The position numbers and the translations under genes were made by a program. The notes under the pieces are model-generated. The model ran no database searches and was not told the DNA's origin. It saw only the letters and a list, made by a program, of their open reading frames with translations. Positions 35,411-55,953 of a DNA stretch of 64,000 nt are shown in pieces. Position 1 is the first letter of the stretch, and each line of letters opens with the position of its first letter. This DNA is from Cyanidioschyzon merolae (taxonomy: Eukaryota): NCBI GenBank assembly GCA_000091205.1, contig AP006491.2. One strand, given 5' to 3'.

Positions 35411-35669
35411 CAACTACTTGTACTGAGCGATGAAGCGAGCGGTCAAGCGCCACCAAGAACGCCTCAACCTAGTTGTCCAGTTTTCCTTGGGGGGCGAATG
35501 CGCTGCTCCAGGTGGAAACCCTCCTGAAGCGCGGCAAGTGGACGCGCGCTGCATCCTTCCAAAGCGATACATTTTGGGTCAAATCGTACGCTATGAACAG
35601 TATCCACCGCGGGCGCTCCGTCGAGCACCTGCGCTTCCGAACGCGGGTATTCGCGTAAACACAGAGGCC

Positions 35670-37244
35670 ATGTCGGGAGCGTGCCGTGTCACGGCATTTT
35701 GTTTCGCTTCTACTCATATCATCACAAGATCAGAAGAGCGATCGGCTAAAACAAGGTTCATATGGAGATGGCGCGTTCAATGGCGCGCTTCACGCTCTGC
35801 TGTGAACCGGCTTACTTGCACCGCGACCTCACCGTCGTCGCCCAAAACACCAACAACCTCTGCAGACGGGCACGCGCGGGACGGAACAGCGGGCCTGGAA
35901 CCCTTGCGCGTCTACGACCCGGAAGTGTACCAGATTCTCGAGAAGGAGAAAGAACGGCAACGGAGAGGACTCGAACTTATCGCATCGGAGAACTTCACCT
36001 CCGCCGCAGTGATGGAAGCACTCGGATCTGCCTTCACCAATAAGTATTCAGAAGGTTATCCTGGTCGCAGATATTATGGTGGAAACATGTATATCGATGA
36101 AGTTGAGCGGCTATGTCAGGAACGCGCACTCGCCGCGTTCTCCCTGTCGCCAACCGACTGGGGCGTCAACGTACAGCCGTACTCAGGGTCACCGGCCAAC
36201 TTTGCAGTCTATACGGCGCTGCTGAATCCGCACGATCGTATCATGGGCCTCGATCTTCCTTCCGGCGGACATCTAACCCATGGTTTTTACACGGCGAAGA
36301 AGCGCGTTTCGGCGACCTCGATCTACTTCGAGTCGCTGCCGTACCGAGTGAATGAAACCACTGGTTACATCGACTATGATGCGCTGGAGAAACAAGCCGC
36401 ACTCTTCCGACCAAAGCTGTTGATCGCTGGGGGCAGTGCGTATGCACGCGAGTGGGATTACGCACGTTTCCGGCAGATAGCTGACCAGAGCGGCGCGTAC
36501 CTCTTGGTCGATATGGCACACATCAGCGGACTTGTAGCGACCGGCGAAGCACAATCACCGTTCCCCTATGCAGACGTTGTGACGACGACGACGCACAAGT
36601 CGCTGCGAGGCCCCCGAGCTGGAATGATTTTTTATCGCCGGTCAGCGCTGGCAGAAATAGCACCGCGTGGTGCCGACCTCGAGCAGCGCATTCAGGAAGC
36701 GGTATTTCCGGCTTTACAGGGTGGTCCACACAACCACCAAATCGCTGCCTTGGCGGTGCAGTTACGCGAGGTACAAACGCCCGCCTTTCGAGCATACGCC
36801 AAGCAAATTCGACGGAATGCACAGGCCCTGGCCCGACGTCTTGTACAACACGGGTATGATTTGGTGACCGGTGGCACGGAGAATCATCTGGTACTGTGGG
36901 ACCTCCGACCGATCGGAATCACGGGAAGCAAGATGGAAAAGTTATGTGAATACGTGAGCATTACACTGAACAAAAATGCAGTACCCGGTGATACCAGCGC
37001 CCTGAACCCAGGTGGCGTTCGGATCGGCACGCCAGCGCTGACGACTCGCGGTTTTCGTGAGGCGGATTTCGAAAAGGTTGCAGACTTTCTGGATTCATGT
37101 GTGCGGATTGCACTCCGGATCCAGGAACAAAGCGGTAAGAAGCTTAATGACTTTGTCGCAATGCTTCCAGACGATCCAGAGGTGCAAGCGCTCCGTGAAA
37201 GCGTGGAGCGCTTTGCGAGCACCTTTCCTATGCCTGGTCGCTGA
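35670..37244 (+). CDS. SHMT: Serine hydroxymethyltransferase (possibly with an organellar presequence); an alternative upstream ATG exists at 35430
   Basis: ..[20 protein letters not shown]... Motifs [10 protein letters not shown] and [13 protein letters not shown], with the PLP-lysine region TTTTHKSL. Stop codon TGA. Confidence 0.9.
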
Positions 37245-38305
37245 TTCGTTACCCTCAAGCTGATTGCCCTGCTTGGACACGGACCCTCTATCTCTGTCGG
37301 GGGGTATGCACGAATACGGTGGAGGCACCTACACTCGCCCGTACTGTTTCCGGCGCATTCGACGAGAGCAGCGCCCTTATCTTTGTGAATCAGGCGTGGA
37401 CGTCTTCTCAAAGGCACCGCGATGACGCTGAAAGTGGTCACGAAACCCGTACGCAAGCAATAGATGCCGTCTATCGGAAACAGTTGTTCATCGGGGGATT
37501 TGCTCATCCACACGTCTGCACGCGTGGATGTTAGGGTGGAATCCAGCATGCCGGCATGGTAAAAATTCTCACGAATCGTTGATCCTCCGAACCGTCGGCA
37601 TCTGCACGTACAGGTACGGATACTAAAGTCGAATCCTTTATTTTCGTGATCTGTATCCACGCGTCTGGCAGCTCGTGCTCGTCAGCGCGTTTGCCGCAAC
37701 CTGCTGCTCCCTCTTCGGTGGTACGAATGTCGCCCAGCAGATCAGTTTCACCGTATCCGCCAGCCCAAAGTCGACGACGATCACAAAACAGGTCCCGGGT
37801 GCTCGTCACAACGGACCTCCGCTTTCGCGTCTGCGAACGCGAGCATCGAACGCGGAGCTTGCACGGCGCCAGGACGAGCGCTCGTTCATGCACAAACGCA
37901 AGCCTGTAGAAAAGCTTTCTGTGCTTCGTGCGACCTTGCGAAGCGATTTTGCAGGCCAGTGCCGGAACCTCGCCCAACTGATGTACGGCAACGCTGATTG
38001 TGGAAACGAGACAGCAAATTCAGCTGGATATCTGGACCTCTTCCCCTGGCATGTTTTACACGCCGTTCGATCATGACCAGAGCAGCGACTGCAGCGCTGC
38101 GATGCCAATGCGATCGCCAAGAGGTAGCGTCCCTCATCTGCAGGTCATCTAACAATCTAGGGACTGGTCTGTGGCAGCGGTGTGTGGCCCCCAGCGGTTT
38201 GCATTCCTTTGAACTGAAGAGGCACGAGCAGTAGTGGCGTGCAATGCATACGTCGGAGCCTCCTCGACATGAACGCCTTTCTGGGTAATACTCAGACTAG
38301 TGCCT

Positions 38306-38362
38306 TCTAGAGTGCCTGTACCAGCACGCCCGATTTGGTTTTGTTTGTTTTCCTGGCAGGAG
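38306..38362 (+). other. Conserved 57-nt intergenic motif, copy 1 (function unknown)
   Basis: ttctagagtgcctgtaccagcacgcccgatttggttttgtttgttttcctggcaggag is about 93% identical to 53443..53499. The flanking sequences of the two copies are unrelated. Confidence 0.5.
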
Positions 38363-39449
38363 GATCGAGTAGGATGACGAGGTCAGGACCCGTCTCGATG
38401 CTCTGGGTTCCTTTCCGATGAATGAGGACATTTTCTGCGCCTTATTTCGAGCGAATATTAGCGTCCAACTAGCGAAATCGGACAATCTCCGGCTGGAGTG
38501 CATGACATCGTGCACGGGACGCCAACGGTATCCGCAGTGCAGAGACAACAAGCGTGGATTCAAGTGTCTGCTCAATATGTAGGAAATAGAAATGACGAAC
38601 ATGACGTGTCGTTTGGTCGAGGCCCCTGGCTCTGGAGGTGCTGCAACGCGCTGAACCTGCACTTTTGCTCCGTCGACCAGCGCGCACAAAGTGAGCAGGA
38701 ACTGAATCTTTCCATCTCCCATCGATGCAATCCAGACGATTTGAGCGCATCACGAGCACAAGGGCACGTTGAGCGTGCTAGACGACAACAGCAACATCGT
38801 GAAGCAATGACGAATGCACCAGATGATGGAAAGTTAGTTGACCATCCGTTTATGGCGAGGCAGTCGGGGGCAAGAGACTTGCGATGATATGACTCTCCGC
38901 GCAACAGTACGCGCCATGACTTGATGCATCGTGACAGGAAGGCTCCCATCACGAGCGAGGGATGTCTCGTGCTTCCCGGGCGGACGTCCGTCGGCTCGGT
39001 ATCCAGCGAGCTTTCGCAGGAATCGTTTCGTACCAAGCGTGTGCGTTGTGCTGCGATGCGGAAGACTTGCGCTCACGAAATCAGTGCCTGGGAGAGGGTC
39101 ATAGATTCCCGTCTGGCTCAAGGCCCTGGCATGATACGGGGTCACCAATGCGGCAAGGCTGGTACGTTCTATGCATACATCGGGAACGGTTTCCCAGGTA
39201 ATCGGTGAACAAGAATGGTGCCATATCATTCAGTAGTACTGAATATTGGTATATATAGGCAGAACGTTTCACCGTAAACCTCTGATGGATTCCTAAAGCA
39301 ACGTCAGACTGAATCGGATCGGGTCCGTTCAGATAACCCGAGTGTTTACGCTCAACATGAGGGTCTCTTCTCCTTGTCATCAACATGAGCGTTTTGCGCG
39401 CTTCCACTGCGAATGCTTCCTTTTTCTCTCGCTTATATGCGGTTTTCAG

Positions 39450-40500
39450 TGTGCCGGTCTCTACGATCCCTCCAGCTCCGATGTCAGCTGTTGGGGAGAG
39501 TTCATGAGAGCGTGTGAGTCCCGCTCTCGTCGCTTCCTGCTGTTGTCGACGCATTGCATGCCGAGGCTCAAGTGACGATCTACATATCGATTCCCATTTT
39601 CACCGTCTTTGTAGATAGCCTTGATGCGCTCTTCGCAGCGCTGTTCATTCACTGAGCTCAGGTGCTCCCATCTGTCCACCGACTTTGCTTCTCAGAGCAT
39701 TGCCAACCTCTATAGTGTTCGAAAGCTTCGTTCATCTCGTTCGATGCCGTCCTCCGTTTCCGCGCTCGGTGCCGTACCGTGCGATCATGAGCAACTTCTG
39801 TATGAAAACTACGGCGACTGCGCTGTCCTCTGCACGTGGGAGCGCGCGCTGTTCCATGAAAGCCCGTCCTTGTGGAACGCAATGTTGTCCTTGATGAAAC
39901 AAGTACCGAGAAGCAAAATCCAGGATACAGAACATGATAACGAATTTCGATGTTCCGGTGCCCCGTTCGAGCTAAGCGATGCTGCACGCTCCACTGGAAA
40001 CAATCGCTCCGATGAATCTAGTCCGAGTCCGAGACGCTCTTTTACGAAAACAGCAGAAATGCGAGCTTCTCGCAACGTATCAGAGGAGAAGTATCATGCC
40101 GTTGTCGAATGGCGTCTTATCGATGGGAACAAAGATGGAAAAATCTAGTTTTTGAACGGAACAGATGATTCAACTTGACAAGTTCCGTGAAGTTTCGGCT
40201 TATACTTGTGACCGAATCGTTCACGGACGACCTCGAGTATCTTTCCTCGTAAACCTAGCGGTGCAAAGGGCTGCACCCATGATTTGCCTTGAAATAAAGA
40301 GATCGAATCCCTGAAGGATTTGTGACATGCGCGTGCCTCATATAAAGAAAAGAGATGGGCGGAGGCTTTGCCTCATGAATTCGATGATGATATCGGTAAT
40401 TTCACGAACCTTCGTTCGGCGGCGTCGCCAAACATCCTGAATCCGGTGACGTAACAAAAGCCAACGGCAAAGCGTCGTAGCAGGCACTTCACCACTGAGA
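39450..40500 (+). repeat. Dispersed repeat family 'R3', copy, containing an intact 175-codon ORF (39621..40148)
   Basis: Homologous to the 13.1-14.1 kb and 46.0-47.2 kb copies (..ccgtaccgtgcgatcatgagc.., ..ttgtggaacgcaatgttgtccttgatgaaacaag.., ..gagaagtatcat..). Terminal motif atccggtgacgtaac..agcgtcg (40447). Confidence 0.55.
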
Positions 40501-40860
40501 ACGCTGAGCCTACGTATGCATCCGCAAGCCCTTCGTGCAGCACTCGAAATTACAATTCTATACATGTACATACGGTTCGGAAAAAAATCTCAGGGCATGA
40601 ACAGTGCGACCAGTTCCATGTTTCAGTTTACTCTGACACGCGTCCTAGTGCAGGTAGCGGGGTGCGAGCTTCAGCGGCATCGTCCTCGCTTGACCAAGAA
40701 GCCTTGTAGTTACAGCGGGCGCGCTCCGATGCCTGAACGTCATCGCGAGCCCATCGGACAAGTTCCGCACTGAACGCCAATAACGCAACCCTCGTATTCG
40801 TCTTCTGCGTGTTGTGCAGGAGCCCGCCCTGGCAGCGGTTTCTGCAAAACTCGGCACCGC

Positions 40861-43341
40861 TCAGAGGACCTGTGGCACATCCACGGGACAAGGACATGAT
40901 ACGCGGGCAGCGGGTACCGGTCCTGGCCCTGGTTCCGCTGACGACGGCACCTCAGCCATAACTTGCGTACTGCGACGACGAAAGCGACGTGCTTGGTGGC
41001 ACACGCTGCGCACCATGGTGCCGCTCTCGGGTCCAAACAGATGCCGAGATATACCATCACGAAGCCCTGTTGCAGGACGTTCACAGAATGAGGCAGGTAC
41101 AGCCTGTGCTTCCCACTCAGTCCAAGTCGGGGAACGATTCAGCGCACCAACAAGCCCAGCGAGACGACGAGTCGCAGCCGTCCGAGCCACTTTTTCTATA
41201 TCCTCGACAGGCTCATGCCTGGTGTTGGTACCGCTCAGCGAACCAACAGCTGACGTACTCGAGGAGCGTGTGCGCACACCAGGTCCAGAGTGGCTCGCTG
41301 CATCCGCAGATGACGATCCGAGCGCTTGCGTTCCAGAAAGTGTTCGTGGACGCGACGCTGACGCCGTCACCGATCGGACATCGTCGAGGACTTTTCGAAT
41401 CTCTGACAAGTCCGTAGCATCGGGCAGCGCGCTGCGGCGTGTGCGTTTCTGTGGCGTTTCCGGCGGTGACATCACCGGCGTCGCCAGCCCTGCAGCCGGT
41501 GACGACTCCACATCCGAACTCGGGCACGCTGCCGTTGGTGCACCAGAATTCCGAGACCCGCCTGCGAGCGGCTGGGATAACGGCGTGCTCGACTTGACTG
41601 TCCGCTCAGGCGTTTTCAGCGCTGCTGCTGCTGCTGCTGCTGCACCTTTCTGTGAACGCAATGACCAGTGCGGGCCTGCCGTTTGCGCATGCGTCGAGAG
41701 CTCATCCAACATGGATGCGCTCGCAGGTGAATGACCTGATGAGGGAGTTTCGCACCTCAGGTCTCGCAATTTGGGTTCTATCTGGACCAGGTAATGCTGT
41801 TGGGCTCCGATCACAGATCCGGGGCGGCACAGCCGACACCAGGCAATGGCCTCCGTTGCCGTAAAGCCGTACATGTGCATCAAAGCACAGCACATAAGCG
41901 TTCCAGTGCGTCCAAGGCCGGCCTTGCAGTGAACCGCAACGGCACCCGGTTCATCCGCGCAAATCGCCAGAAAACGCTGGACGATATTCCAGTCCGGACA
42001 TGCACCGTCCGCAAAGTACAGATCGTAGTGACGAAATCCCGCTTGGCGAAAAACACGCGCGTCATAGCGTCGCCGGTTCAGACGTACCACAGCAGTGACG
42101 CCAAACTGCTGAAAGAGGCGAATAAAGTACTCGGGAGCACAGCCCACGCCGATGTCTGTTGCTTCCGGGCAGCTCGTCGGACCCGCGAACGCCAGCAGCT
42201 TACCCGGAACAATCCAGTTCAGGTCGCCGTTGTGTACTTGCTCCCAAAGCTCATATGATTCGATATCGAACGCATCTGGTGCGAAGAGGTGGCACACATT
42301 GGTCGCCCGATGCCAAGCGCTGATGCAGTCAAAGACGCCCAAAGGGAACGAGGATTCCGGACCAGCAGATGCATCGCGAAAGAAAACCAAAGAGCTTTTG
42401 AGACGCTGGAGTTTTGCATCGGCCTGTTCGGGGAGATCTCCAAGGCGAAGAACGCGATAGGCGCCCACCAGGGCTGCTGCGTTCGTCAAAGACTCTAGAT
42501 CATCTGTACAGAGCATGATGGCGATAGGAGACGCCCTGCCGGGGACATTGTCCTCCACGAAAGATCCTTCATCTCCGTCGCTAACAACAGTTTTCGGAGC
42601 GTATGCAAGATTGTGTTTCACTCCCTCGCCTTGGACTGCGTTGCCTCGCAGTGCTCCGTCGCACATACCCCGAGGCATCAAGACACCGTCCGTGCGTCCT
42701 TGCCAGAGATGCAGCTCTCGGACGATACTTTCAATACGCTGAATAAACCGCATGGTCTGCGCGAGATTGTATGGTCCAAAGTCGTTACAGAACGCCTCGT
42801 ACACAAGGTCGTCCTGGACGGAAAACAAAAGTCCAGCCAGGTGTCGAGTTCGGTTCGAGCGAGCGCCGCCACCTGCGGTGTCCGCAGCGTCCGCCTGCGG
42901 CCGGAGCGGCGTGCCGTTCGCAGTCGCTTCTGCGAAGAGCCCCAACAGCGTCGGCGGTGCTAACAACCGACAGTCCGGAGTGCGTCTTTCGCAGCATCCT
43001 CGATCGATGCTTTCAGATACTGGCCGGTCTTCAGGGTCTCGGGCGCGTACCGACCACGGAACCAGGTACACGAGACCAGGAACAACCTCAGCATAGAGCT
43101 CTAGACGAAGATGCGATCGCAGTTCTGGCCTCTGCTCCAAGGCAGAACGCAGCCAAGGAGACATCCAAGCCCATTCTTCATATGCACAGTGGGTTCTTTG
43201 TTCGTCGCCCTCAAAGCAACTGCTGCTTCGCTGCTCTGAGGGTTCCTCAGCTCCGCCCGGTCCCGCGCTTGTTCGCACGCGCTCCGACACAGACTGCGCC
43301 CTGCTCTGCTGGCGGGTGCGATGCGCAACACCGACCATCAT
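40861..43341 (-). CDS. CDC14: CDC14-type dual-specificity protein phosphatase with a long Ser/Ala-rich C-terminal tail
   Basis: A CDC14-type N-terminal domain (..LVYEAFCNDFGPYNLAQTMRFIQ..). Catalytic loop VHCKAGLGRTGTLMCCALM. ATG start at 43341. Confidence 0.85.
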   Translation of the reverse strand: MMVGVAHRTRQQSRAQSVSERVRTSAGPGGAEEPSEQRSSSCFEGDEQRTHCAYEEWAWMSPWLRSALEQRPELRSHLRLELYAEVVPGLVYLVPWSVRARDPEDRPVSESIDRGCCERRTPDCRLLAPPTLLGLFAEATANGTPLRPQADAADTAGGGARSNRTRHLAGLLFSVQDDLVYEAFCNDFGPYNLAQTMRFIQRIESIVRELHLWQGRTDGVLMPRGMCDGALRGNAVQGEGVKHNLAYAPKTVVSDGDEGSFVEDNVPGRASPIAIMLCTDDLESLTNAAALVGAYRVLRLGDLPEQADAKLQRLKSSLVFFRDASAGPESSFPLGVFDCISAWHRATNVCHLFAPDAFDIESYELWEQVHNGDLNWIVPGKLLAFAGPTSCPEATDIGVGCAPEYFIRLFQQFGVTAVVRLNRRRYDARVFRQAGFRHYDLYFADGACPDWNIVQRFLAICADEPGAVAVHCKAGLGRTGTLMCCALMHMYGFTATEAIAWCRLCRPGSVIGAQQHYLVQIEPKLRDLRCETPSSGHSPASASMLDELSTHAQTAGPHWSLRSQKGAAAAAAAALKTPERTVKSSTPLSQPLAGGSRNSGAPTAACPSSDVESSPAAGLATPVMSPPETPQKRTRRSALPDATDLSEIRKVLDDVRSVTASASRPRTLSGTQALGSSSADAASHSGPGVRTRSSSTSAVGSLSGTNTRHEPVEDIEKVARTAATRRLAGLVGALNRSPTWTEWEAQAVPASFCERPATGLRDGISRHLFGPESGTMVRSVCHQARRFRRRSTQVMAEVPSSAEPGPGPVPAARVSCPCPVDVPQVL

Positions 43342-43964
43342 CTCCGTCGTGCCTGTGCAGCTACTGAAAGCTGATAAGCACAGGACAAAAGTTCAGAGGC
43401 TACAAACACGTCTTTGCATCCACGTCCGAGCACACATTCGTCAGGGACGCTGCAAAATAGACCCCCGATGGATCCGCCTCCGATGCCGGGGAGTGTAGGC
43501 CCCGGTGCGCTTCGACGGCCTTGTTTCGTTGTTCGCAGCCGCAGCTCGATGCGCGATCTCCGGCGGATGCGCGCCTGCCGTGGACGTAACGGTCGCGCGA
43601 TGCTACTGGGCCTTGCATCGCATACGACTCAAATGTACAGAAATGTTCAAATTGATACGGCGATCGTTACGAGCGCGTGTGCGTGCGATTTGGCTGTGAT
43701 GGAAAAACGTGTCCATGGACTGTGGATGGCCCAAATTGCGGGATAGGTGAGCATTGACATTCGGGAAAGCGTCCATCATGCTGCGCAATACTCACGCCCA
43801 AGTTCTATTACCTATGCTTCCTATTTTCTATATGGTGCGCTTGATATTTGCACCTCCAGATCTGACATGCATTGAACACGTCGCGCATGTCGCCGCTTTA
43901 GGGAAACGCGATACTGATCATCAGCGTGACGCTCGAACGAACAAGTTGTATTTGCGTCAAATTC

Positions 43965-45941
43965 GTACCAAAGTAGAGTGTTTATCCCAATCGTGTTTCA
44001 ACCATCAAGTACGTGTATTCAAGTGGTTATTTGCAGTTTGTATCAGAAGCGTTCAAAGAGCGATATAAAAAAATCAAAAAATGGAAAGTTTCGGAAGAGG
44101 AAGAGGAGGATCCTGGAGGCGGAGTATCACCGGCTGGCAGAAAAAAACAAAAGACAGTGCAGAGCGAAGAAGAACAGGAAAAGACGAAGAAGCAAAAAGG
44201 AGAGGCTCTACCTCAAATGCTGGAAGAAAGACGACGGTGTGACGAGATGGTAGTGAAAGCCTGTCTTCGTAAACAGAACAAAGATCCGTACAAGCAGGCG
44301 TTGCGGGAGGCCATTAGAAACCGTGTTGAGTCGTACTGTAGGAGTATTCGTAACGCTTCTTTTGGACATATGCATATAGCGAAGGAGATGTATCGTAACG
44401 TGACGCACATGGAAACAGTCGAGGTTCCGGATGAATTTTTCAACGAGAACTTATTCGTCGCTTGCTGGTTGGCACAGGGGAAGCTTCGACGAAAACAATG
44501 AGCGAGTGCATGCTCTCCACGAACATTGCGCCGAATTTCGCTTCAGCGATACTCGATACAAGGATGTCCGGCATATTTACACCTACGAGCCGATGTAGTA
44601 CCCGACGAACCTGAGGAACCATTTGACCAAGAACCTCAAACGCTTCGTGATACGCTCCATCTTTGCACTATACCCGGGCCTCTCTCGCAAAGTGATTGAG
44701 GATCATAGTCGATGGCATCGTTAACGATAGTAAGAATGAAGAGGAGAACGAATTCGTTGAGAAGAAGACATTACACAGGGGACAGAATGAAGCTTCTGGA
44801 ATCCGTGCGGCTATTCAAGAGCACCGTGTGGTCGTGGGCCTGTTCAACCCAGCAGAAATGGTATCCGATATGGAATAAGATTAAGAAAGATGCTATCCCC
44901 TAATCCTGCGGTTTTTCGTGTTTTTGGACCGAGAACTCGAACGTAAGGCGGAGATGGAGCTGGGTGTCGTAAAATGAAGAGTCGGAGAAACGGAAGGCTG
45001 CCCTAATGGGAACGCGCTTCAACGGCGTTCCATTGTGGAACATCAAGTCGCACATTGTGACCATCAACTCCAGAGTCCTTCACAGCTTAATGAAAGAGGT
45101 CACCCCAGTGTTCGATGTCCATGAGGAGGAGTTCAGCAAAGTGACAAGCCGCGGAGCGGACTTTCGAGCCTTCCGGGAATTCATGGAAGCTCAGGCTGCT
45201 CATGACTGCGAGATGTGGAAATGGTCCGGAAAGCCCCGGAGGGCCCGTCAGCATGTGAACCTGTATTGTGGCAAACAGCGTGCATTCACCAACTTCTTCA
45301 ATCAGTTGAGCGTCCTCAAGGTGGTCAAGAGTCAAAGGATTGTAATATCGTACGGAGCAGGGCGCTTTGTACCCGGAAGACGGAGCGCACCCGCTCCATC
45401 GACACGAGCGAACAAGGAGTGCGCATACCTGTTTATTCCATTTCCGATAGATGAGTTCCGAACGTCCTATGTGCACCATGAGCTGAGATGTGCATTCCAG
45501 AGAATCGAGTTGGAGAAGTGTCAGCAGAGCCCTGAGCAAATAGAAAAATACTGTGCGCTAACGGAAGTGCAAATGGAAAGGAGGGCGAAAGTTCGACGGC
45601 TACTCGCATTAGAGAGTACAATCAACGGCAAGAAACGTACGGAGTTTGTGAATCGTCAATTTCACGCTGTTATCACAATAATGAGATGTGCGGTGCTGGA
45701 GACGAGACCCGAGGAGTTGACGCGAACCATCTCTGTGGGGCAGCTCCTCAAGGTCGCATTGTACGGAGAGAAGTTGAAACCAGTAGTTGCAGGCCGGTCA
45801 AAAAAGGCTGGGAGGCGTCTGCACGTCGGTGGGAGACGTATTGTCTACGTCGGGCGGTTTGCAGCTCGCCACCACAGTACACCCGTTATGCAGCGTACGC
45901 CGACTGAAACGCAATCGCTTCTTTGTCACACAATTTTGTAA
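43965..45941 (+). mobile_element. TnpB/Fanzor-like element, copy C: a degenerate copy lacking the RuvC-I and tandem-repeat region
   Basis: ORF1 homolog 44013..44501. The nuclease-ORF homolog 45006..45941 jumps from ..VHEEEF directly to SKVTSRGADFRAF (equal to copy A at about 23380), a deletion of roughly 1.35 kb. It keeps IDEFRTSYVHHELRC, but RuvC-III has degenerated to FVNRQFHAVITIMRCAV. It also carries extra stops and frameshifts. Confidence 0.65.
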
Positions 45942-45949
45942 GCATAAAG

Positions 45950-47180
45950 TTGAAATCGCTCCTTGAAGCATGCACTCGTGCACTCTGAATTTTGGGTATT
46001 GCCCCAGCGTTATCAAAATTGCCCCTTGGTGGATGGTTTTGCAGCTGCCTCCTTTTCTCTCCATCATCTCCGCGTTTGAAAACGTCGGTCTCTCGAGTCC
46101 CTACAGCTCTGCGGTCCGCAATCAAAGGTTCTTGATGGCAGCGTGCAAGTCCTTATTTCCCAGCTTCCAGGTGCAATCGACACCTTCTATTCACAGGCGA
46201 AAGTTGCGATACACGCATCGCTTGACATTTTCATTCGTTTTTTTGGACAGGTTCGGTGCTTCCTACGCAGCGGTGACATTAGAATGCTATCGGATGCTCC
46301 TACGCGTCCACCAATTTTCCTCATGCTCTGACCACCGACCTATGGCGCGTAAAGACTTGAGTCATCGCTCGGCACATACCATGGACGGCTAGACAAGGCG
46401 ATTCGCCTCGCGCTCCTCTGATTCCGAGCCCCGTGTTGTACGCTACGATGACGGGGTTCTTCCGGGCGATCCCTTCGGAGACTACTTTGTCCAGTGCACA
46501 CGCGAGCGTATGCTGTCCTCTTCAAGGGCGTATTTGTAGAACGCAATGCTGTTCACGATGGAACGAGTACCGGAAGCGAAAAATTCAGACTGTAGAAAAA
46601 CGTGACCCAAGAACTTCGATCCTGCTGCGTGCCCTTTGTGCAAAAGCGACGGTGCGCCCTCCAATGGAATCCATCTCGACGATGACTCAGGCCCGAGTCC
46701 GAGACTCTTTTCCATCGAATCACAAGAACTGGGAGCCCCTGTGACCATATCCCGTGATACACGTCATGCTCGTGTCGATTACCATGTCGTCGAGGGCTAC
46801 AAAGAGAAGAAGCATCAAATTTCGAACAGAGTCGATTATATGACGTGAGCCATTCACTTTTCGTTAGGCCTGAGCCCCCAGAGAGGCTTCCAAGGTTCGA
46901 AGCCGATCATGCGTCCGCGTCAACCCAGCGGAACGGAATCCTGGTCCCAGACGGTGCTCTGAACGAGAAAGAGTGAAAATTTGACGAGTGCATGATTGGT
47001 GGACGGTGCGCGTAAGGAGATATGTGTAGTCGTCTTCGCATGTAATGGATCATGATTCCTGATATTTTACGATTCCGTGTTCGTGGGCGTCGCGAGACAT
47101 CCTGATTCCGCAGACGTAACGCACTCCAGCGGCAACGCGTCGAATGACCCATTCCGATACGACGACAGCGCTTCTCCAAA
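45950..47180 (+). repeat. Dispersed repeat family 'R3', copy, directly 3' of Fanzor-like copy C
   Basis: ..AKVAIHASLDIF.. / ..FGASYAAVTLECYR..LSHRSAHTMDG* matches 13.1-13.3 kb. tgtagaacgcaatgctgttcacgatggaacgagtaccg matches 39.88 kb, with TGG changed to TAG. Terminal motif ttccgcagacgtaacgc..aacgcgtcg (47107). Confidence 0.55.
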
Positions 47181-47490
47181 CGACGTATGATTCCATAATC
47201 CCTTCTCGCCGCACTTCGAATGTGGCGTCTGTGCGCCTAACCGATTTCGGAAATTATCGACAGACCGGAGCAAAGCGAGCAGTTCAGTGTCCCATTCTCA
47301 TTGGACCCGGGCCTCGGCACCGTCGACAAACAGTATGACGCAACCTCGTATGGACGTCGCCCGGCTCATGCCGCAACGCGACGATCGATCAAGGCCGTGG
47401 TCTGGACGATCGTTTGCGTCTGCAGCCTGCCGTAGTTTGTTTGTTTGTTTTGTACTTCCACAGGCGACGTGACCTTGTGCTTCGCGGTAC

Positions 47491-49959
47491 ATGTCTGCTG
47501 AGAGCGACCTGGCTGATGATTTGGACCGGCAGGCCTCATTGACGTCATCGAGGACGAAGAAGATACCCATTCAAGGAACTCGAAACGTCCTCGTTACGTC
47601 CGCGTTACCGTACGTCAACAACGTGCCGCACCTGGGAAACCTCATCGGTGCTGTGCTCTCCGCTGACGTCTACGCGCGCTACCTACGTCAGTGTGGAGTC
47701 AATGTGCTCTACATCTGTGGCACTGATGAGTACGGCACCGCCACAGAAACAAAAGCGAGAGAGGAAGGCGTATCGCCAAAGGCGCTTTGTGACAAGTACC
47801 ACGAACTGCACCGACACATCTACCAGTGGTTCGACATACGCTTTGATCACTTTGGACGAACATCTATCCCTCAGCAGACAGCCATCTGTCAGGAGATATT
47901 CTGGGATGTGTACAGAAACGGCTTCGTCGTCGAGGACACCGTCGAACAGCTCTACGACGCGGAGGCGGGTATGTTCCTCGCAGACCGCTATGTGCGGGGC
48001 ACGTGCCCGCACTGCGGCTACGCTGAGGCGCAAGGAGACCAGTGTGACGCGTGCGGGAACCTTCTGAACCCGACGGAACTGTTGGATCCTCGTTCCGCAC
48101 TGACCGGAAGCGTCCCAGTGCGCCGCACGTCCCGCCACCTTTTCCTGGACCTTCCGCGGCTGCGTGACGAACTGGAGGCGTGGATTGAGCGCTCTGCAGC
48201 TCGGGGGCAATGGAGCGAAAATGCCCTCACGATGACGCGGAGTTGGTTGCGTGATGGTCTCAAAAAAAGATGTATCACAAGGGATCTGCGTTGGGGCGTT
48301 CCAGTTCCACTAGATGGATTCCAAGACAAAGTTTTCTACGTCTGGTTCGATGCTCCGATTGGCTACCTGAGCATCACTTCGGACTACATGGGCGACAACG
48401 AGAGCTGGCGCTGCTGGTGGCAGCAGCCAGACGATGTTGAACTCATTCAGTTCATGGGCAAGGACAATACACCATTCCATACGATCATTTTCCCGGGAAC
48501 GCTACTCGCTACCCGGCGTCCGTTCACCATGCTTTGTCGCTTATCGACGACAGAATATCTGAACTATGAGAGCGGTAAGTTCAGCAAAAGCCGCGGTACT
48601 GGCGTCTTTGGTGACAGCGCATCCGAGACGGGTATACCCGCTTATGTGTGGCGTTATTATTTGGTGGCAAATCGACCAGAGCAAGCAGATTCTGTCTTTA
48701 CATGGACCGATCTGGCTGCAAAGAATAACAACGAATTGCTTGCGAACATTGGCAACGTCGTCAGCCGCGTGGTTGCTTTTGTTCAGAACCAAATGGGAGG
48801 CGTGCTGCCGGCGCTCGCGGACGCCTGGTCACCAGCGCCGCTCGATGAACGCTTGTTCGAGCAGGTTACGGCGGAGTTGCAGGTTTTTCATCAGGCAATG
48901 GCGAATATCGGCTTGAAGGCAGCGCTGCGCTCGAGCATGTCCATCGGAAGACTCGCGAATCAGTACTTGCAGGAAACAAAGCCGTGGGACCTCTTCAAAC
49001 AGGACTCGAAACGCGCAGACGGTGTTCGTGTTCTCGTCATCGCGAGTGCAGTTATCCGCTTGCTGGCTGTGACCCTCGAGCCGTTCCTGGGGTCGGGCTT
49101 CGCGAGGCTGGTTTTCCAACAAATCGGTGTACCCCATGCCGATGAGACAAATCGAATTCCGCAGCGTTTCGATCGATCGCAGCTTCAGGAATGGAACTAT
49201 GGCACCGAATCATTTGCGTTTGGCAAACCACAGCACCTGTTCACGAAGCTGGAACCCAGCTTCATAGAAGAGCTCCGTCGCCATTTCGCGGGACATGTTT
49301 CTGCCAACGAAGGCTCGGCATCGAGTGGTGTGGCATCTTCCGACAGCGAGCTACCTCTGGAACTTCGTCTCGGACGGATTATGCAGTGCAACAAGACAGC
49401 GCAGTCCGATCAATTGTATCAGTTGGTGCTGGATCTAGGCCCCGAGGAGGGATCTCGCCAAGCAGCGGCAAATCTCGGACATGCGTTTCCGATGACCAGC
49501 GACTTGCTCGGCCGCTTCGTTGTCGTATGCTGTAATGTGGAGCGCGCGGTGCTAGGCGGTGTGCAAAGCGAGGCTATGGTGCTCGTTGCAGAGAAGAAGG
49601 CGCGCACAGCGCTCCTAACAGTGCGCCACGCGAATGAGGCTATGCTAGGGGCAAGACTGCTCCCATGGTCAGCGTCTGAATCAGGAAATCCGCACACGGC
49701 ACTGATGAACGCAGCTCCGCTGTCACCCCTGGATCGGAAGGGTCTCCAGAGCCGTCTGAAGGAACTTCGTGTTCGCGACGACGGTGTCGTGATTTGGAAG
49801 CAAAACAAGCCGCTGGCAGCTGTCGTCCGAGATCCCGATGATCCACGTCCTCTTGGAACATCTAGCGACCCCGCGATGAAGCCGTCTACCGCATGGGTCG
49901 TAGTTAGCGCCGAAGCATCCCTGGATGTAGGATTCTGGAATAACGCACGTGTACGGTAG
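47491..49959 (+). CDS. MARS: Methionyl-tRNA synthetase (class I catalytic core plus a C-terminal Myf/EMAP-II-like tRNA-binding domain)
   Basis: HLGN(L) HIGH-type motif PYVNNVPHLGNLIGAVLSADVYARY. KMSKS variant KFSKSRG. Zinc-knuckle cysteines CPHCGY..CDACG. A C-terminal OB-fold-like region ..LRLGRIMQCNKTAQSDQLYQLVLDLG... ATG start and TAG stop. Confidence 0.92.
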   Translation: MSAESDLADDLDRQASLTSSRTKKIPIQGTRNVLVTSALPYVNNVPHLGNLIGAVLSADVYARYLRQCGVNVLYICGTDEYGTATETKAREEGVSPKALCDKYHELHRHIYQWFDIRFDHFGRTSIPQQTAICQEIFWDVYRNGFVVEDTVEQLYDAEAGMFLADRYVRGTCPHCGYAEAQGDQCDACGNLLNPTELLDPRSALTGSVPVRRTSRHLFLDLPRLRDELEAWIERSAARGQWSENALTMTRSWLRDGLKKRCITRDLRWGVPVPLDGFQDKVFYVWFDAPIGYLSITSDYMGDNESWRCWWQQPDDVELIQFMGKDNTPFHTIIFPGTLLATRRPFTMLCRLSTTEYLNYESGKFSKSRGTGVFGDSASETGIPAYVWRYYLVANRPEQADSVFTWTDLAAKNNNELLANIGNVVSRVVAFVQNQMGGVLPALADAWSPAPLDERLFEQVTAELQVFHQAMANIGLKAALRSSMSIGRLANQYLQETKPWDLFKQDSKRADGVRVLVIASAVIRLLAVTLEPFLGSGFARLVFQQIGVPHADETNRIPQRFDRSQLQEWNYGTESFAFGKPQHLFTKLEPSFIEELRRHFAGHVSANEGSASSGVASSDSELPLELRLGRIMQCNKTAQSDQLYQLVLDLGPEEGSRQAAANLGHAFPMTSDLLGRFVVVCCNVERAVLGGVQSEAMVLVAEKKARTALLTVRHANEAMLGARLLPWSASESGNPHTALMNAAPLSPLDRKGLQSRLKELRVRDDGVVIWKQNKPLAAVVRDPDDPRPLGTSSDPAMKPSTAWVVVSAEASLDVGFWNNARVR

Positions 49960-51099
49960 CGCCGTTCGCATTCGATGATCGACGAGCTGCTACCTACCTT
50001 AGGATACCTAAACACCGCACTATTCAATCTCGCCCCGAGGATGGAATGTTCGAAGCGATCGAGCAAGAGCTGTTGACCCGGGCTCTGCAGCCTGAACACA
50101 AGTATGTGGACTAGAGCATGCGCTCTTCCATCTGTTGAAGTCGTCCATCATCGCGGATACTACAATTCTGTTGTTCGACTCGCTCCTGAACAGGACTGGC
50201 TATTCACATGGCAATCAATGGAAAAGCGGAGACCGACACTATCAAGAGCGGCTTGAGTCGTGCCCGGCATTCACCCGTTACGAGCACGATGCGACGCATG
50301 CGCGTCTGGCGAGGCCTCTACCAAGCGCGCACTGCAGACGGAACGCACTGCACGGGAGCCTGTCCACGCAGGGCGACGTTTTCGGTGGTGCACGTCGTTC
50401 TACCAGGCCCCTGAGCGCGCTTCGAACGATGTCGCCCTCCAAGATCCGCAGGATGCCGAGCGACTTGACCCGCGCGTACTGAGGTAAACGACGCGGTCCT
50501 AGACTGTAGCAGGTATCCGCGAATCACGCAAGCCTAAAACGCCAGTGCTGTAACTGCCGAGACTTTCCAGACGCATGTACGGATGAGCAAACTCGTTCAT
50601 CAAGTAGGACAGGGCCCAAAGATGCCAGCATTTGCACCAATCCAACATGTACGCGGTGTGCCGCTAGCCTCGAGTGCGTCCTCTCCGTCTGCTACGATGC
50701 GGTCGCTATGATTGTACAAAGGGTGTGCGCGGCTCTGCATGAGCATGCTTCCGCGACGACATATGATGACATTCATGAATCGTAGGCTGTTGGAATCTGA
50801 ACACAAGTGAAGAAAGGATAGACACTCTCCTGGATGCCGATTTTCATCCCGGAATCTCCGATCCCTGGTCAGTGTCGATGCAATACCCATCAAAACAATG
50901 ACTGGTGTGTGCGCGTACATCCGTAAACGTGCATGCTTCTATGCACTGGGAGCTCGCCTATATCCAGGTCACATGAACACGGAATACTGAACTGCTCGCG
51001 CTGTTACACCCTCGATATTGTTTCCGAAACTGTTATAGATGTCCCGACTCGACACACGAATTGCAGCAGTGGGGATTGCGGATGCCTAGGGCATTGCAG

Positions 51100-52320
51100 G
51101 ATTCCGGGCCTTGCTTCCCGAGTCGATCCTTTGACGCCCTGCCGCTGGAATTTCGTACGGTCATCGGAATCAAGATGACTCGCGTCGTCCGCGAACAAGG
51201 ATGCGTCAACGAAGAGAGTTCATGTTCAAATGCATATGTGCCAGCCTGAACGCCTCTCCATGCCTCATGTGTATCGTGGCTAGTTCATACAATTTTCAAG
51301 TTATCGGTTTTTCTGTTTCACGGCAACTTGTGGACACAGCAACGCTCACCGCTGGATTGAAGAGGAAAGCATGCGGCATCGTCACTTAAAGTCGTGTTCA
51401 CACGCGCACGACGAAATTTCACGGATCTCTTCGTGTCAACCGAGAATCCATTTCGATCGAAGGACAGCGTGTACCCGATTGTGGCCGTCGGAACCAACGG
51501 CATTCGACAGTAGCATGATGCCTCTCACTAGATATGCTACCAGAAGCGCTGGGCCCCTCTGGTTCCATGGAAAACCGTCTTGCACTAGAGTCATCGCAAC
51601 GATCTCTTCCAGCGGGGAGTGTGTCATTACGCTCTACGAAGATGCGTAGAAGGATCGATATTTCTCGATCTGATCCCCTGTCTGAATTCTTCTTCCGGGG
51701 CATGTTTCTTCATCATCAACGTTGCGCTCCATAACTCGGTTGCGTGTAACAACGTGCGATTGTGCGTACACCGGACAGAGCGCTTGTCGAGAGGATCACC
51801 CACGAGAAGAAGCTACGGATCGTATGGTACGGAACCGACCGTGGAAACGGTTGCGCGCATCGGCTGGAGTCATCTGCTCCCGTCACGGGCAGGCACCGTG
51901 CGATGACGCAAGCGTTCACGCGCCACAGCGTATTCCGCAGCTGAAGAATCGTTGTGGATATCTGGGAATCCCTGATCCTAGCCATGTGTCACGGTTGCGA
52001 AACGCACACCGATGCTGTCTACAAACAAGACGGAAATGGCAAGCGCAGCGTAGATCGCAACTTTTGCACCCACGTAATATGCATATACAACATCGGGAAC
52101 TATCGAAATCAGGAACCTAACGCTGCTGTCGATGTTCTTCAACTGCTGACAACACAGCTGGAGGGAATCGAGAAACGCCCGTCTGGAAAGCCAGAGATAA
52201 GAGACAGGAAAAGCAAGCAGTTCCATGCAGAGTTTGAAAAACACTGGTATTGAGTACCAGAAAAAAGAAACCCAAAGGTTGAAGTTCATGCCCGAGTTAC
52301 ACAAGTAGACCTGTTCTATT
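51100..52320 (-). repeat. Dispersed repeat family 'R3', copy, in inverted orientation
   Basis: The reverse complement of 51110..51160 matches the R3 terminal motif (cgacgcgttgccgctggagtgcgttacgtctgcggaatcaggatg ~ gacgccctgccgctggaatttcgtacggtcatcggaatcaagatg). Minus-strand ORFs give ..PFPRSVPYHTI.. and ..GAKVAIYAALAIS... The plus-strand ORF gives ..VWYGTDRGNGCAHR.., equal to the minus-strand frame of the 39.7-39.9 kb copy. Confidence 0.5.
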
Positions 52321-52497
52321 TGATGCTCACATCGCTAGCAGACTGCGCTGATCCAAGTCGCGTGAAACGCTGCTTCGCGCGCACACATCGTCGATTCGAT
52401 GTTTCGCAACGATTCACAGCGTAAACAATTTCTTCTGTTGCCGCTACTGTTGAACGTTTCTGCACGGTAGACGCTGGTGCCTGCCCAGTCTTGAGAT

Positions 52498-53190
52498 ATG
52501 AGTCAGGTGTTCATCCTGAAGCGTGTTTTCAGTCGGTGTACGAGACCGCTTCTACCAGTGGTAGAACGAAACAGCGGAGCAGCGAGCTGCTTCGTCACTG
52601 GGTACCACGGGGCTGCGCTCTCGACGCAAGCGGACACGGTTCCGAGCGTGCGCCCCGGCACCGCTCCGCGGGTGCTCAAGTCGTCTGCTCCATCGCTGCC
52701 GGTGGGCATGCACCCGGAAGGAAAGTTAGAGTATGCCGTATCGAAGCTGGACGACTTGGTGAACTGGGCGAGGCGGAGCTCGGCGTGGCCGATGACGTTT
52801 GGTCTCGCGTGCTGCGCAGTCGAGATGATGCACGCAGCTGCCGCGCGCTACGACTTTGATCGATTCGGCATCATCTTTCGACCATCACCGCGGCAGAGTG
52901 ATGTTATGATCGTGGCCGGGACTTTGACGAATAAAATGGCACCAGCTTTACGGAAAGTGTATGATCAAATGTCGGAGCCGCGCTGGGTCATCAGCATGGG
53001 GTCTTGCGCGAACGGCGGTGGCTACTACCACTACAGTTACTCGGTGGTGCGCGGTTGCGATCGAATCGTCCCCGTTGACATATATGTACCGGGTTGTCCG
53101 CCGACTGCGGAGGCCTTGGTCTACGGTGTATTACAGTTACAGAAGAAGATGAAACGCCAACAGACTTTGCTCGCTTGGATGAAGAAGTGA
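52498..53190 (+). CDS. NDUFS7: NADH:ubiquinone oxidoreductase 20-kDa subunit (NDUFS7 / PSST / NuoB homolog) with an N-terminal presequence
   Basis: ..[16 protein letters not shown].., ..[82 protein letters not shown]... These include the Fe-S cluster N2 cysteines. ATG start and TGA stop. Confidence 0.9.
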
Positions 53191-53442
53191 GCATATCCGC
53201 GCAGCGCATGCAGGATGAAGAGACCGTTTCTTTCCCAAAAGCAAATGCGTGCAGGCAGCTTTTGACGGCAAGGTATGCGACATGAGGCTGTGAATGATCC
53301 CCGCGACCAGGGTTATGGAGATGAGCGACCCGCCGGCGCCTCGAACCTGTGCACAGCACCTCTCGTAGAAGCAGGGGGTGTTCCGGCCCGACCGTGGAGT
53401 CGATGAACGCAGTCTGGTGACTGGCATGCCCAGAGCAGGACG

Positions 53443-53499
53443 TTCTAGAGTACCTGTACCAGCACGCCCGTTTTGGTTTTGTTCGTTTTCCTGGCAGGA
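53443..53499 (+). other. Conserved 57-nt intergenic motif, copy 2
   Basis: ttctagagtacctgtaccagcacgcccgttttggttttgttcgttttcctggcaggag; see copy 1 at 38306. Confidence 0.5.
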
Positions 53500-55953
53500 G
53501 TCCAGTGAATGCAATGTATCCTGTGGATCGAAGAAAGGTCCTGGAGAGACTCTATGCTGTAACTGCTTGCTTGAGAAAAAGGCGACCGTACCCGTCCAGC
53601 GTAGCCATTCTACGCTCATCGTAGGGATTAACTGGCCTCCTCGTTCTCCGCAAGACGAGCGCCGTGCGCCCGAAACAGTACGTGTCACTCTCTATCGATA
53701 TGACGGTTTTATGGTCGATCCATTCCATACTGTCTCTAAAAGATATAATTGAAGTAGCCGCATGGTCTGAAGCTACCGTGCTGTTGATGCGTCCGGTGAC
53801 CAGGAGACAGCAACGGACCGAGAAGGAAGCACGCTTCTGCGAGAGACCTTCGCACATGAGATGCCACACACTTGACTCTGGTAGTGCGCTGCGAACGCTG
53901 GGTACAGGGCCGACGGGTGTTCGTCTCACACGCTGAGACTGCATTCGTGAGAAACGGTAGACCTGTATATACGTACTCAGAAATGAGCAGGCCGTCGTTT
54001 CTAAAGTAGAGACAAATGAGCGTTCCGAAAACATCATCTCCAGCGGCGATGCAGTCTTGTAGTCGCCTGCGAATCCCAAACCGAATAGAATCGCATAGCA
54101 CTTGAGCTTTCATCGAAACGCTTTGCGGCTCCTGCTTCCCACATGCTTCCGTCCTGTTATTAGAAAACGTCGCTTCCCATGACTCAAGAGCTATCAAATA
54201 GAGCGCTGCTGCTTCTGGCGTTCATCTGGTCTCCGTACCGGCCTCGGCTCAGTGGTTCAGTCTAGCCGAAGGCATCCTCTCGGCAGGCAAACGCCATGTT
54301 CATGATCGTAGAACAGTCGCTAAGTCGTTCGTGTCCACGATATCCCTCTTGGACAACTCGCTGCAAGCCTTCACCAGCGGGTGAGCTGCTGCTTTGCTTC
54401 TCTGTCAGTGCGCGGGAGGGAGCGGAAAGCCGCGCTTCTGTCTAGAGATACGTTCGCGCCGAAGCAACCGACGAAAACGCACTCGAAGAACCGCAGAGAC
54501 GCACAGACGTAGGAACTGCGGGGTTCGGAAACCGCGTTTAGCCGGCGCGTCCTAGTCCTGAGGGAAAACTTGGATATAGATTCCAGCGAACACATGCATC
54601 CTCCATCGCCAAGTCCAAAACGAAGACGAAGAAACCACCAGACAAAGGAGAAGAAGACCCGCCCCTAAACGCGGACGCAATTCGACAAGAAAGGAAACGT
54701 TCGGGGCGCGATGGTTAGTCTGAAGCGGTTGTCAGCGCCATCCTCCAACATAAAACACGAACGGGGAGTATCCTGCGAAAAGTGACATGCAGGAGTCCAT
54801 CAGGGGTCGCTTGACGCACCTCGTCGAGCACTTGCTCCCAGAAGTGGTGGACGCCGGGCTTCCAGCCGTCCATATTCTTCGCGAATTCTTGAGCCAATGC
54901 TTCGTGCAACTACACAGCTGTGATGCTGCTGAGAAGATACAAAACGGCATGAATTGCCAGGATTCCATGGTATCGGCAGTCAGGCATCATGAACGCTACG
55001 AGGCACACCAACAACTGGAATGATATCATCAGGACCGAACTTGACCTTCTGAAATACGTATCGAGCTGGGAGCTATGCCCTGTACGCTTCACCGAGAGCG
55101 TCCATGGTCGTCCAGCTCGCTCATTAGGACAAAACTTGGCAGAATACATGAGAGCACGCTGGTGTCGCCAACAGTTCCGATTGCGTGGAAGCAAGAAGCA
55201 TGCATTCGTCAGCCTGAAGAATGAGCTCGAGACAGAAGCAAACGACACGTCGCGTCCTTTTTATTGGTATCCTACGGCGCTGGCGTACCGTACCGTCAAC
55301 GCTGCACGCGTGCACCGTCGACCAGACCATGCAACGAGTGCAGGAATCAATTCAACGGATTCCCGTCGATGCACTCAGGACGGTACCACCGCATCATGAG
55401 CATGGATTCACGCTAATTCATGCACAAAAGAGAAATCTGAAACGGAAACGAATGCATGAGATGGTGTACGCTACGCTGATCCAACACCAGACGGCGATGC
55501 AATGGTGTATCGAAGCGTCTGGCGATGGGTTGCGTTCCACGAGCGGGGACGCGCAGGCACCTGCTGCACTCAAACTCGAACGCTTCGATCCTCATCCTGA
55601 ACGATTTCGCAATGCCTTAGCACCCAAAGGCTTTGGGTCTAGCCAACTTTCAAGATCTTGGTTTAGGATTCTCAGTAGGCATTGTGTTGCTACGCGGAAG
55701 ACTGGTGATGAAAAGAATACTGGGGCCAGGAAACAGGGTATTCGACGCTCGCCTGGATCCGGGTACTGGTGTGTGGTAGCGCTCAGCCAGCGCGAAACAC
55801 CGCAGCGGCATACGTACATCGACACGGGAAACAATTTTCCTGGGCAATCGATGAACGACCATGATGTTCCATGAGTCCACGGTACCGAGTATACCACGCT
55901 TCGACCTGGTCAACGCATCTCTCTGCCCTGGAAAGCATTCCCATGGAATACGA

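Follow-up and report, generated by a model that had tools for sequence, protein, structure and literature searches.

Mariner/Tc1 elements that carry a Fanzor1 gene, such as PUl-1, PUl-2 and PGv-1, are known (PMC3627910), and Mariner/Tc1-Fanzor associations have also been reported by Jiang et al. 2023 (PMC10530073). For Cyanidioschyzon merolae, a red alga, the only Fanzor family described, CMe-1, lacks terminal inverted repeats (TIRs) (PMC3627910). Its element CMe-1A, a Fanzor1 element of 3169 bp with ~150 copies and no TIRs (Bao & Jurka 2013, PMC3627910), is probably the 3.2-kb repeat family, ~5% of the genome, of Nozaki et al. 2007 (PMC1955436). The latter work put transposons at 0.7% of the genome, with ‘eight class II elements’ (PMC1955436), while P-MITE lists no MITEs (miniature transposable elements with inverted repeats) in C. 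merolae (PMC3964958). We analyzed a repeat, R3, that occurs six times between the genes of a 64-kb stretch of C. merolae 10D chromosome 9 (hereafter, the window), concentrating on its copy D. We conclude, with a probability of about 0.8, that R3 is an ancient, dead, non-autonomous class II transposon family of the Tc1/mariner-IS630 type, probably derived by internal deletion from a Fanzor carrier.

Coding remnants and termini of R3

BLASTN with positions 39300-40700 and self-comparison of the window recovered the six copies listed in a preliminary description of this DNA, pairwise 64-75% identical in an alignment spanning more than 1.2 kb. Longer flanks and copies from elsewhere sharpened the edges, and the unit, previously given as ~1.2 kb, measures ~1.37 kb from TIR to TIR. 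Further copies were collected from JGI metagenomes with a hand-designed degenerate 37-nt DNA pattern that matches exactly the five full-length copies of the window. It retrieved 27 contigs representing nine insertions, four of them new; three more copies, located in L007, L030 and L033, escape the pattern. At least 13 distinct copies, with a tendency to cluster, are now known.

The coding strand of R3 is opposite to that of a 175-codon open reading frame (ORF) noticed earlier in copy D. Read on this strand, the consensus contains FVAIDETAFD...GYAPRGSR...IAAI...FIMDNIAFHKS, and the 5′ 236 codons correspond to a Tc1/mariner-IS630 (Pfam DDE_3) transposase over its N-terminal two-thirds. PF13358 DDE_3 matched the consensus of six copies with E=2.2e-9 and that of eleven copies with E=1.4e-9 (38.4 bits; gathering cutoff 28.6), and a third run, also above the gathering score, gave E=6.4e-9. 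The match extends over profile positions 3-97 of 146 and takes in the first two catalytic Asp residues. Single copies are too damaged for Pfam, and significant matches were obtained from the consensus only. The N-terminal part matched helix-turn-helix (HTH) families weakly (HTH_Tnp_Tc3_2, E=0.0064, 17.2 bits, cutoff 31.5; HTH_33, E=0.035). The mariner transposase of PUl-1 from Pythium (Bao & Jurka 2013) aligned by BLASTP with consensus residues 11-236 (E=2e-5), from the HTH to the second Asp, and the alignment stopped at the DN..H..S motif. The spacing between the two Asp residues is ~77 in R3 and 76 in PUl-1. When the consensus transposase was searched against copy D by tblastn, 50% identity over 226 aa was found at 39897-40565. 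The third D/E of the Tc1/mariner-IS630 triad lies about 34-37 residues past the second D. In R3 the C-terminal third of the transposase with this residue is absent, the region after DNIAFHKSS being missing in 13 of 13 copies; because of this loss, R3 is a derivative of a superfamily member and not itself an autonomous one.

The last 148 codons of R3, downstream on the same strand, correspond to the C-terminus of a Fanzor1 nuclease. Here the consensus reads QRALARAADR...KPVIVGYGTGRGNGGGHRGEPSVPVKGMYRAMKQAF...WEHLTTVK.HRC...FRLCIKC...RNRDLHAAINIL. The motif [TS][TS]-x-x-C4 zinc finger-x(5,50)-RD marks the C-terminus of TnpB/Fanzor proteins (Bao & Jurka 2013, PMC3627910), and the [TS][TS]-x-x-C4...RD signature was recovered in the 11-copy consensus as TT-x-x-(C)xxC...CxxC...RD, where the first Cys is Arg. 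PF07282 matched the R3 fragment with E=7.6e-4 and a relative, P0040, with E=1.7e-8, which is above the cutoff. When 5.8 billion proteins were searched with the R3 consensus, two matches were obtained. One, P0032, is an intact ORF 45% identical to the consensus (E=1e-31) that covers exactly the Fanzor part; the other, P0033, is one more decayed R3 copy. The Fanzor identity is independent of the R3 consensus, because P0040 matched the raw sequences of copies F, B, D and A of the window in tblastn with E=5e-16 to 2e-9 (in copy D at 39440-39691, E=5e-10).

Relatives of P0032 include longer proteins with a RuvC-I motif, G[IL]DPGRVNLY, ~130 residues upstream. No counterpart of this motif was found in R3, to which P0040 matched by tblastn from residue 193 onward only. 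In complete Fanzor1 proteins 125-275 residues separate the RuvC-I Asp from the [TS][TS] motif downstream of it (Bao & Jurka 2013, PMC3627910). R3, in which roughly the last 148 of ~700 Fanzor residues are kept, thus holds a fragment of a Fanzor gene and not the gene itself. The alignment of the family (A4) matched the published Fanzor1 of CMe-1 in hhalign with 98.3% probability (E=1.8e-14) over 210 columns that include RuvC-I. An exhaustive HMMER search yielded 726 relatives; the best-scoring full-length matches are mostly ~600-850 aa long and similar to R3 in their C-terminal half, and no transposase domain was found in the closest full-length relatives. A profile search of PDB sequences found nothing, and an AlphaFold2 model of P0040 was poor (pLDDT 52.6, pTM 0.30). 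Guide-RNA structure was sought in the 3′ tails: RNAalifold of eight tails gave -0.57 kcal/mol and 3 pairs without covariation, and the consensus tail folded no better than shuffles (z=-0.60), although decay could have erased a structure. No Rfam family was found in the tail. The closest full-length relative of the Fanzor part is P0047, a protein of 551 aa (L045 5569-7224) encoded near genes for RNA ligase, 2H-SAK and Peptidase_S74 domains, with no transposase nearby; L045 is possibly a viral contig.

R3 is bounded by imperfect TIRs of 24 bp that form the outermost ends of the conserved block. In the consensus, the first 24 nt (ACCCGTGTCAGATGAAAATGGAAC) and the reverse complement of the last 24 nt agree at 20/24 positions, a score reached by none of 346 internal windows and none of 2000 shuffles. 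TA is present at the 5′ edge in 5/11 copies. At the 3′ side the adjoining dinucleotide is TA or one substitution off in all 9 alignable copies, with TA as the majority consensus. The flanks fit a TA target-site duplication. Empty sites were sought among metagenomic relatives of the MetRS locus, all of which proved to be strains 98-99.5% identical and with the same insertions.

Decay and origin of the R3 chimera

In the 11-copy consensus the transposase part forms one frame of 236 codons with one stop, and the Fanzor part one frame of 148 codons with no stop. The two frames are out of register and meet within a few nt of ...DNIAFHKSS. The same out-of-frame junction is present in 13 of 13 distinct copies, including those from other samples; therefore, the founder that was amplified was already this chimera. 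No copy among the 13 exceeds ~1.4 kb. The reconstructed founder, ~1.38 kb long, consists of a TIR of 24 bp, a leader of 54 bp, the 236 and 148 codons, and a tail of ~150 bp that ends in the other TIR.

Differences from the consensus are distributed evenly over the three codon positions both in the transposase part (0.253/0.252/0.265, p=0.61) and in the Fanzor part (0.273/0.275/0.261, p=0.73). Omega, the nonsynonymous to synonymous ratio relative to expectation, is 0.80 and 1.11, respectively. The copies, on average 73% identical to the consensus, contain 2-10 stops each in total, and all but one have frameshifting indels. Between strains, 1.26% of sites are polymorphic in R3. The corresponding values are 0.78% for coding sequence, 1.16% for relics of CMe-1A and 1.77% for the remaining non-coding DNA. 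R3 copies are now without coding function, and their decay is neutral.

The founder would have arisen by an internal deletion in a mariner-type element in which a transposase gene was followed by a Fanzor gene, in a layout like that of PUl-1. The deletion would have taken the C-terminus of the transposase and most of the Fanzor gene. Because both TIRs were kept, the transposase of a full-length partner could have mobilized the founder in trans into TA sites, presumably in one old amplification burst. After the burst the autonomous partner would have been lost and the copies would have decayed neutrally to ~27% off the consensus. One of three options raised in the preliminary description, a non-autonomous transposon, is thus borne out by the TIRs, the truncated transposase, the shared deleted architecture and the neutral decay.

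Two metagenomic contigs bear on how the chimera was formed. L008, a 1.1-kb contig from an AT-rich organism (33% GC), carries a transposase end at 2-196 (GVEVLFVPPYSPWFNPIENAFSLIK and a stop; PPYSPWFNPIE), then a 240-bp spacer and a Fanzor tail on the same strand that begins with NDERYKKKMV (438-1088). L009 contains at 5992-6561 a Fanzor C-terminal fragment cut at the same point, N[DA]ER.K.KM. It follows that a transposase-then-Fanzor arrangement exists outside C. merolae, in AT-richer organisms from similar samples. The Fanzor part of R3 starts within ~10 codons of this truncation point, and what is missing from R3 runs from the second Asp to a point about eight codons inside an L008-type tail. 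The TIR transposon could have become chimeric by capture of a ready-made Fanzor 3′ fragment, or by insertion into a Fanzor element, followed by a second small deletion; a complete transposase C-terminus, spacer and Fanzor fragment from NDERYKKK onward are what L008 contains. Known mariner-type carriers such as PUl-1, however, have a full-length Fanzor1 downstream of the transposase, which makes a deletion series the simpler route, and L008 is only 1.1 kb long with unknown ends. We consider such routes possible but unlikely; capture is the chief competitor of the deletion model. In L009 the fragment has a PIF1 helicase and a Prim-Pol protein as neighbors and may lie in a virus-like or mobile context.

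Several points weigh against our reading of R3. Since no full-length autonomous parent, with transposase and Fanzor of this lineage both complete, was found among the contigs examined, we can only infer the deletion step, for which we estimate about two-thirds support; nor was a transposase gene found beside the full-length Fanzor relatives in L010, L014, L043, L044 and L045. Given the near-identical truncation point in L008 and L009, the Fanzor fragment may already have been short in the parent. Every result at the protein level depends on a majority consensus built from 6-11 decayed copies, the putative HTH is assigned from sub-threshold Pfam matches, and the third catalytic residue cannot be examined in a transposase that lacks this part. 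The TA duplication is statistical and not clean in individual copies. Finally, R3 is less polymorphic than other non-coding DNA, a class that includes indel-prone tandem repeats.

In comparison with PUl-1-type carriers, R3 has the same order and strand of components, with a 5′ transposase, a 3′ Fanzor1 and short TIRs. The TIRs of PUl-1 and PUl-2 are 24-33 bp long with TA duplications, those of R3 24 bp with TA-like flanks, and the C-terminus of the PUl-1 Fanzor aligns to the 3′ end of R3 (E=7e-5). PUl-1 is 3.6 kb long, whereas R3, at 1.38 kb, is without the C-terminal third of the transposase and ~80% of the Fanzor. R3 also differs from PUl-1 in that its remnants are out of frame, all its copies are dead and its host is a red alga. 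Internally deleted Tc1/mariner-IS630 elements keep their TIRs and subterminal regions, lose the interior through a shared deletion, and decay neutrally in a star-like manner after one burst. R3 has the same traits, but the interior that it kept joins pieces of two genes, and at 1.4 kb it is much longer than typical MITEs.

No description of R3 was found in the papers searched. The ‘eight class II elements’ of 2007 (PMC1955436) had weak BLASTX matches to bacterial transposases (E=0.071 to 6e-7), of the kind that an IS630/DDE_3-like remnant would give. Their copy number is of similar order to that of R3; the text of that paper has neither sequences nor coordinates and mentions no TIRs or Fanzor part. 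R3 may correspond to these elements or to an unclassified Repbase entry.

R3 is a degraded red-algal example of a Mariner/Tc1-Fanzor1 element, with a previously unreported second Fanzor1 lineage in C. merolae. The alga would once have been host to a mariner-type element carrying this lineage besides CMe-1, and the relics would be a dated fossil that records, in red algae, the association of Fanzor with a carrier. The analysis also accounts for a repeat that stands out in a genome among the poorest in transposons known from eukaryotes, and it clears the annotation of a spurious gene candidate and a spurious regulatory motif. Otherwise R3 is an ordinary genomic fossil that leaves the understanding of such systems unchanged.

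Table 1. Coordinates of R3 copies, parts of copy D, neighboring genes and CMe-1A pieces in the window; for R3 copies the strand is that of the ancestral genes.
Feature	Position	Strand	Basis or remark
R3 copy A	7025-8398	-	BLAST, coordinate mapping
R3 copy B	12862-14224	-	BLAST, coordinate mapping
R3 copy C	34506 to ~35470	+	Without 3′ third; directly upstream of SHMT start (annotated ATG 35670)
R3 copy D (focal)	39297-40643	-	1347 bp TIR to TIR; 11-copy alignment and coordinate mapping
R3 copy E	45932-47312	-	BLAST, coordinate mapping
R3 copy F	50962-52336	+	BLAST; P0040 tblastn E=5e-16 at 51750-52214
5′ TIR of copy D	40620-40643	-	Consensus ACCCGTGTCAGATGAAAATGGAAC
Transposase remnant of copy D	39863-40565	-	Putative HTH region and DDE core to second catalytic Asp (CFIKDNIAFHK)
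Fanzor1 C-terminal remnant of copy D	39449-39863	-	RuvC-II region, zinc ribbon, RuvC-III RD..AAINIL
3′ TIR of copy D	39297-39320	-	Coordinate mapping, TIR match
175-codon ORF	39621-40148	+	TTG start; antisense to transposase and Fanzor remnants of copy D
TGACGTAA ‘CRE-like’ motif of copy D	40447-40454	+	Reverse complement of TTA-CGT-CA, codons Leu-Arg-His
SHMT (BAM79985)	ORF 35430-37244		C. merolae 10D protein match
CDC14-like phosphatase	40861-43341		Sole annotated gene between SHMT and MetRS, because accession numbers are consecutive
MetRS (BAM79987)	ORF 47491-49959		C. merolae 10D protein match
NDUFS7 (BAM79988)	ORF 52498-53190		C. merolae 10D protein match
CMe-1A piece	2861-3504		5′ part only; consensus BLAST
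CMe-1A piece	10897-11063	-	Consensus BLAST
CMe-1A piece	12515-12714		Consensus BLAST
CMe-1A piece	20140-24123		Consensus BLAST
CMe-1A piece	34440-32692	-	Consensus BLAST
CMe-1A piece	43698-45883		3′ end to ~45912; consensus BLAST

The 175-codon reading frame and the TGACGTAA motif

Given the 175-codon ORF of copy D, R3 might be taken for a family of small protein-coding genes that has degenerated and of which this ORF is the last intact member, and the copies do share peptide-level similarity in several frames. The preliminary description had on these grounds proposed a decayed protein-coding origin. The coding origin stands, but the strand does not: the conserved peptides are mirror images of the real motifs; SLWNAMLSLMKQ (39868-39903), for example, is what results when the sequence for CFIKDNIAFHK, the motif of the second catalytic Asp, is read in antisense. 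All frames with database homology lie on the strand opposite the ORF, which has a TTG start and is absent from a collection of 15 billion proteins. The ORF of copy D had been thought the only open one, but ORFs of 180 codons in copy A (7507-8049) and 174 codons in copy B (13159-13683) are open on the other strand. Pfam matched none of the three. In strains L027 and L031 the ORF of copy D is interrupted by an in-frame stop (NVS*EKYH), and the differences are mostly non-synonymous. Antisense ORFs of like size occur inside real genes, for instance at 47683-48210 in MetRS. No frame is open across the copies, and the proposed comparison of substitution classes revealed no coding constraint (omega 0.8-1.1, with substitutions even over codon positions, stops and frameshifts). 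We conclude that the ORF is a chance open frame, a by-product of old coding sequence on the wrong strand, and that a small-gene family has next to no probability.

A second feature of R3, the TGACGTAA motif, had been proposed to be a CRE-like site for bZIP factors. R3 would then be a cis-regulatory module, perhaps a co-opted one, that brings this site to housekeeping genes. In the window TGACGTAA occurs 4 times against 1.24 expected; in copy E the motif precedes the MetRS start by ~370 bp, and SHMT has copy C directly upstream. The exact motif is, however, present in only three of the six window copies (A, B and D), the fourth occurrence being an unrelated site at 23243, and in none of these three is its position promoter-proximal with respect to a gene start. 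In A, D and F the motif faces the 3′ end of a gene or is >1 kb from a start; placement relative to neighboring gene starts shows no consistent orientation or distance. The Leu-Arg-His codons behind TGACGTAA lie in ...STLCRWNSLRHRNQDD... of the transposase HTH; the segment that holds them, STLCRWNSLRHRNQDDSRRPRTRI, corresponds to the putative helix-turn-helix and basic linker. In the four copies that were not selected through this region it is 72% conserved, compared with 71% for the whole element. Extra conservation seen in the 11-copy set was rejected as an ascertainment artefact, four copies having been fished with a pattern from this region. A bacterial promoter and terminator scan of the R3 region, irrelevant for a eukaryote, gave nothing above shuffles. 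The motif does not mark the end of the repeat either: copies had been described as ending with ccggtgacgtaac...agcgtcg, and it lies ~190 bp inside the 5′ TIR. TGACGTAA is another by-product of old coding sequence on the wrong strand, degenerate in half of the copies and conserved at background level, and we give the regulatory reading a very small probability.

CMe-1A and other features of the window

The six R3 relics jointly cover ~12% of the window, in which several CMe-1A pieces are also present. The ‘Fanzor element’ of which R3 had been suspected to be the 3′ module is CMe-1A. The two families are alike in genome and age, both derive from Fanzor1-type genes, and their copies are often side by side; CMe-1A is without TIRs and transposase, and R3 has TIRs and a transposase remnant. 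The 3′ ends of CMe-1A lie ~15 bp (a solo 3′ fragment) and ~13 bp from the 3′ TIRs of copies B and E (12824-12861 and 45890-45932), and ~35 bp from the 5′ TIR of a new copy, N3; in copy N4 the arrangement is nested. The sites outside the window are L020 5574-6005 and L033 2517-2927. Adjacency thus concerns 4 of ~13 copies and either end of R3, but always the 3′ end of CMe-1A.

R3 contains Fanzor-derived sequence itself, which together with these distances of 13-35 bp could speak for R3 as an integral part of the resident CMe-1A. A blastn comparison of the 3169-bp CMe-1A consensus with that of R3 found no similarity beyond chance matches of 10-22 nt, and the relation of R3's Fanzor remnant to CMe-1 is no more than distant (21% identity, E=0.038 in BLASTP). 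R3 also has its own TIRs, either of its ends can face CMe-1A, the majority of its copies are solitary, CMe-1A being absent from the ends of A, D, F, N1 and N2, and the full CMe-1A copy at 20140-24123 has no adjoining R3. Because nucleotide similarity is lacking and the Fanzor relation is distant, R3 is not a module of CMe-1A, and we regard such a relation as highly unlikely. What stands of the earlier suspicion is the adjacency and the presence of a Fanzor1 remnant, which belongs to a lineage separate from CMe-1.

By a rough estimate the adjacency is well above chance, even given the local density of transposable elements. It might reflect target choice, with CMe-1A inserting beside an R3 TIR or R3 beside the right end of CMe-1A, where the guide RNA of the Fanzor would be encoded, rather than shared ‘safe havens’. 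We find this doubtful; if true, it would give a first hint of how a eukaryotic Fanzor1 element selects its insertion sites. One possibility is that the Fanzor 3′ end and right end, truncated alike in R3, L008 and L009, were selected for a guide RNA used in trans.

Solo 3′-terminal fragments of CMe-1A (consensus ~2738-3169) recur as a separate short repeat, in the window at 10897-11063 (-) and 12515 to ~12845 (+) and elsewhere in L007 474-821, L030 10186-10422 and L020 5574-5917. They share a variant end, ...GGTAnnnAnTTACyCT...TTTTTCGTTyCAnTGA, and may derive from the right end as a non-autonomous element; TE-N2_CMe is their analogue among 5′ solo elements. The near full-length CMe-1A copy (20140-24123) contains, at 22195-23170, ~13 tandem repeats of a 75-bp piece of Fanzor1 coding sequence (consensus 2117-2196), with a higher-order period of 150 bp, inside the ORF 21950-23110.

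All R3 copies of the window sit between annotated genes, beside housekeeping genes as first described (SHMT, MetRS, NDUFS7; Table 1), and no annotation falls inside R3. Copy C, previously called rearranged, is instead truncated at the 3′ end, and it is inverted like copy F, which had been taken for the only inverted one. The 604-codon SHMT ORF of metagenome calls begins 80 codons before the annotated start (MSGACRV..., 35670), at 35430-35669 of the window. Because its opening codons are the Fanzor remnant of copy C, in frame, these longer gene calls are probably artefacts.

Apart from R3 and CMe-1A, the window contains a pair of ~850-bp repeats with 70% identity (1996-2850 and 11492-12340), the second of which sits between two inverted CMe-1A 3′ fragments (10848-11063 and 12555-12771). 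A 58-bp sequence is 95% identical between 38305-38362 and 53441-53580, with a more diverged relative at 252-392; it is much younger than the R3 or CMe-1A relics. A tRNA gene on the minus strand (1781-1884, 47.7 bits) was the sole Rfam match in the window and, being 104 nt long, probably holds an intron or insertion. A tandem repeat array at 58801-59169, between a GDPD-domain gene and an EF-like GTPase gene, varies in length between strains, the alignments of L003-L005 breaking there.

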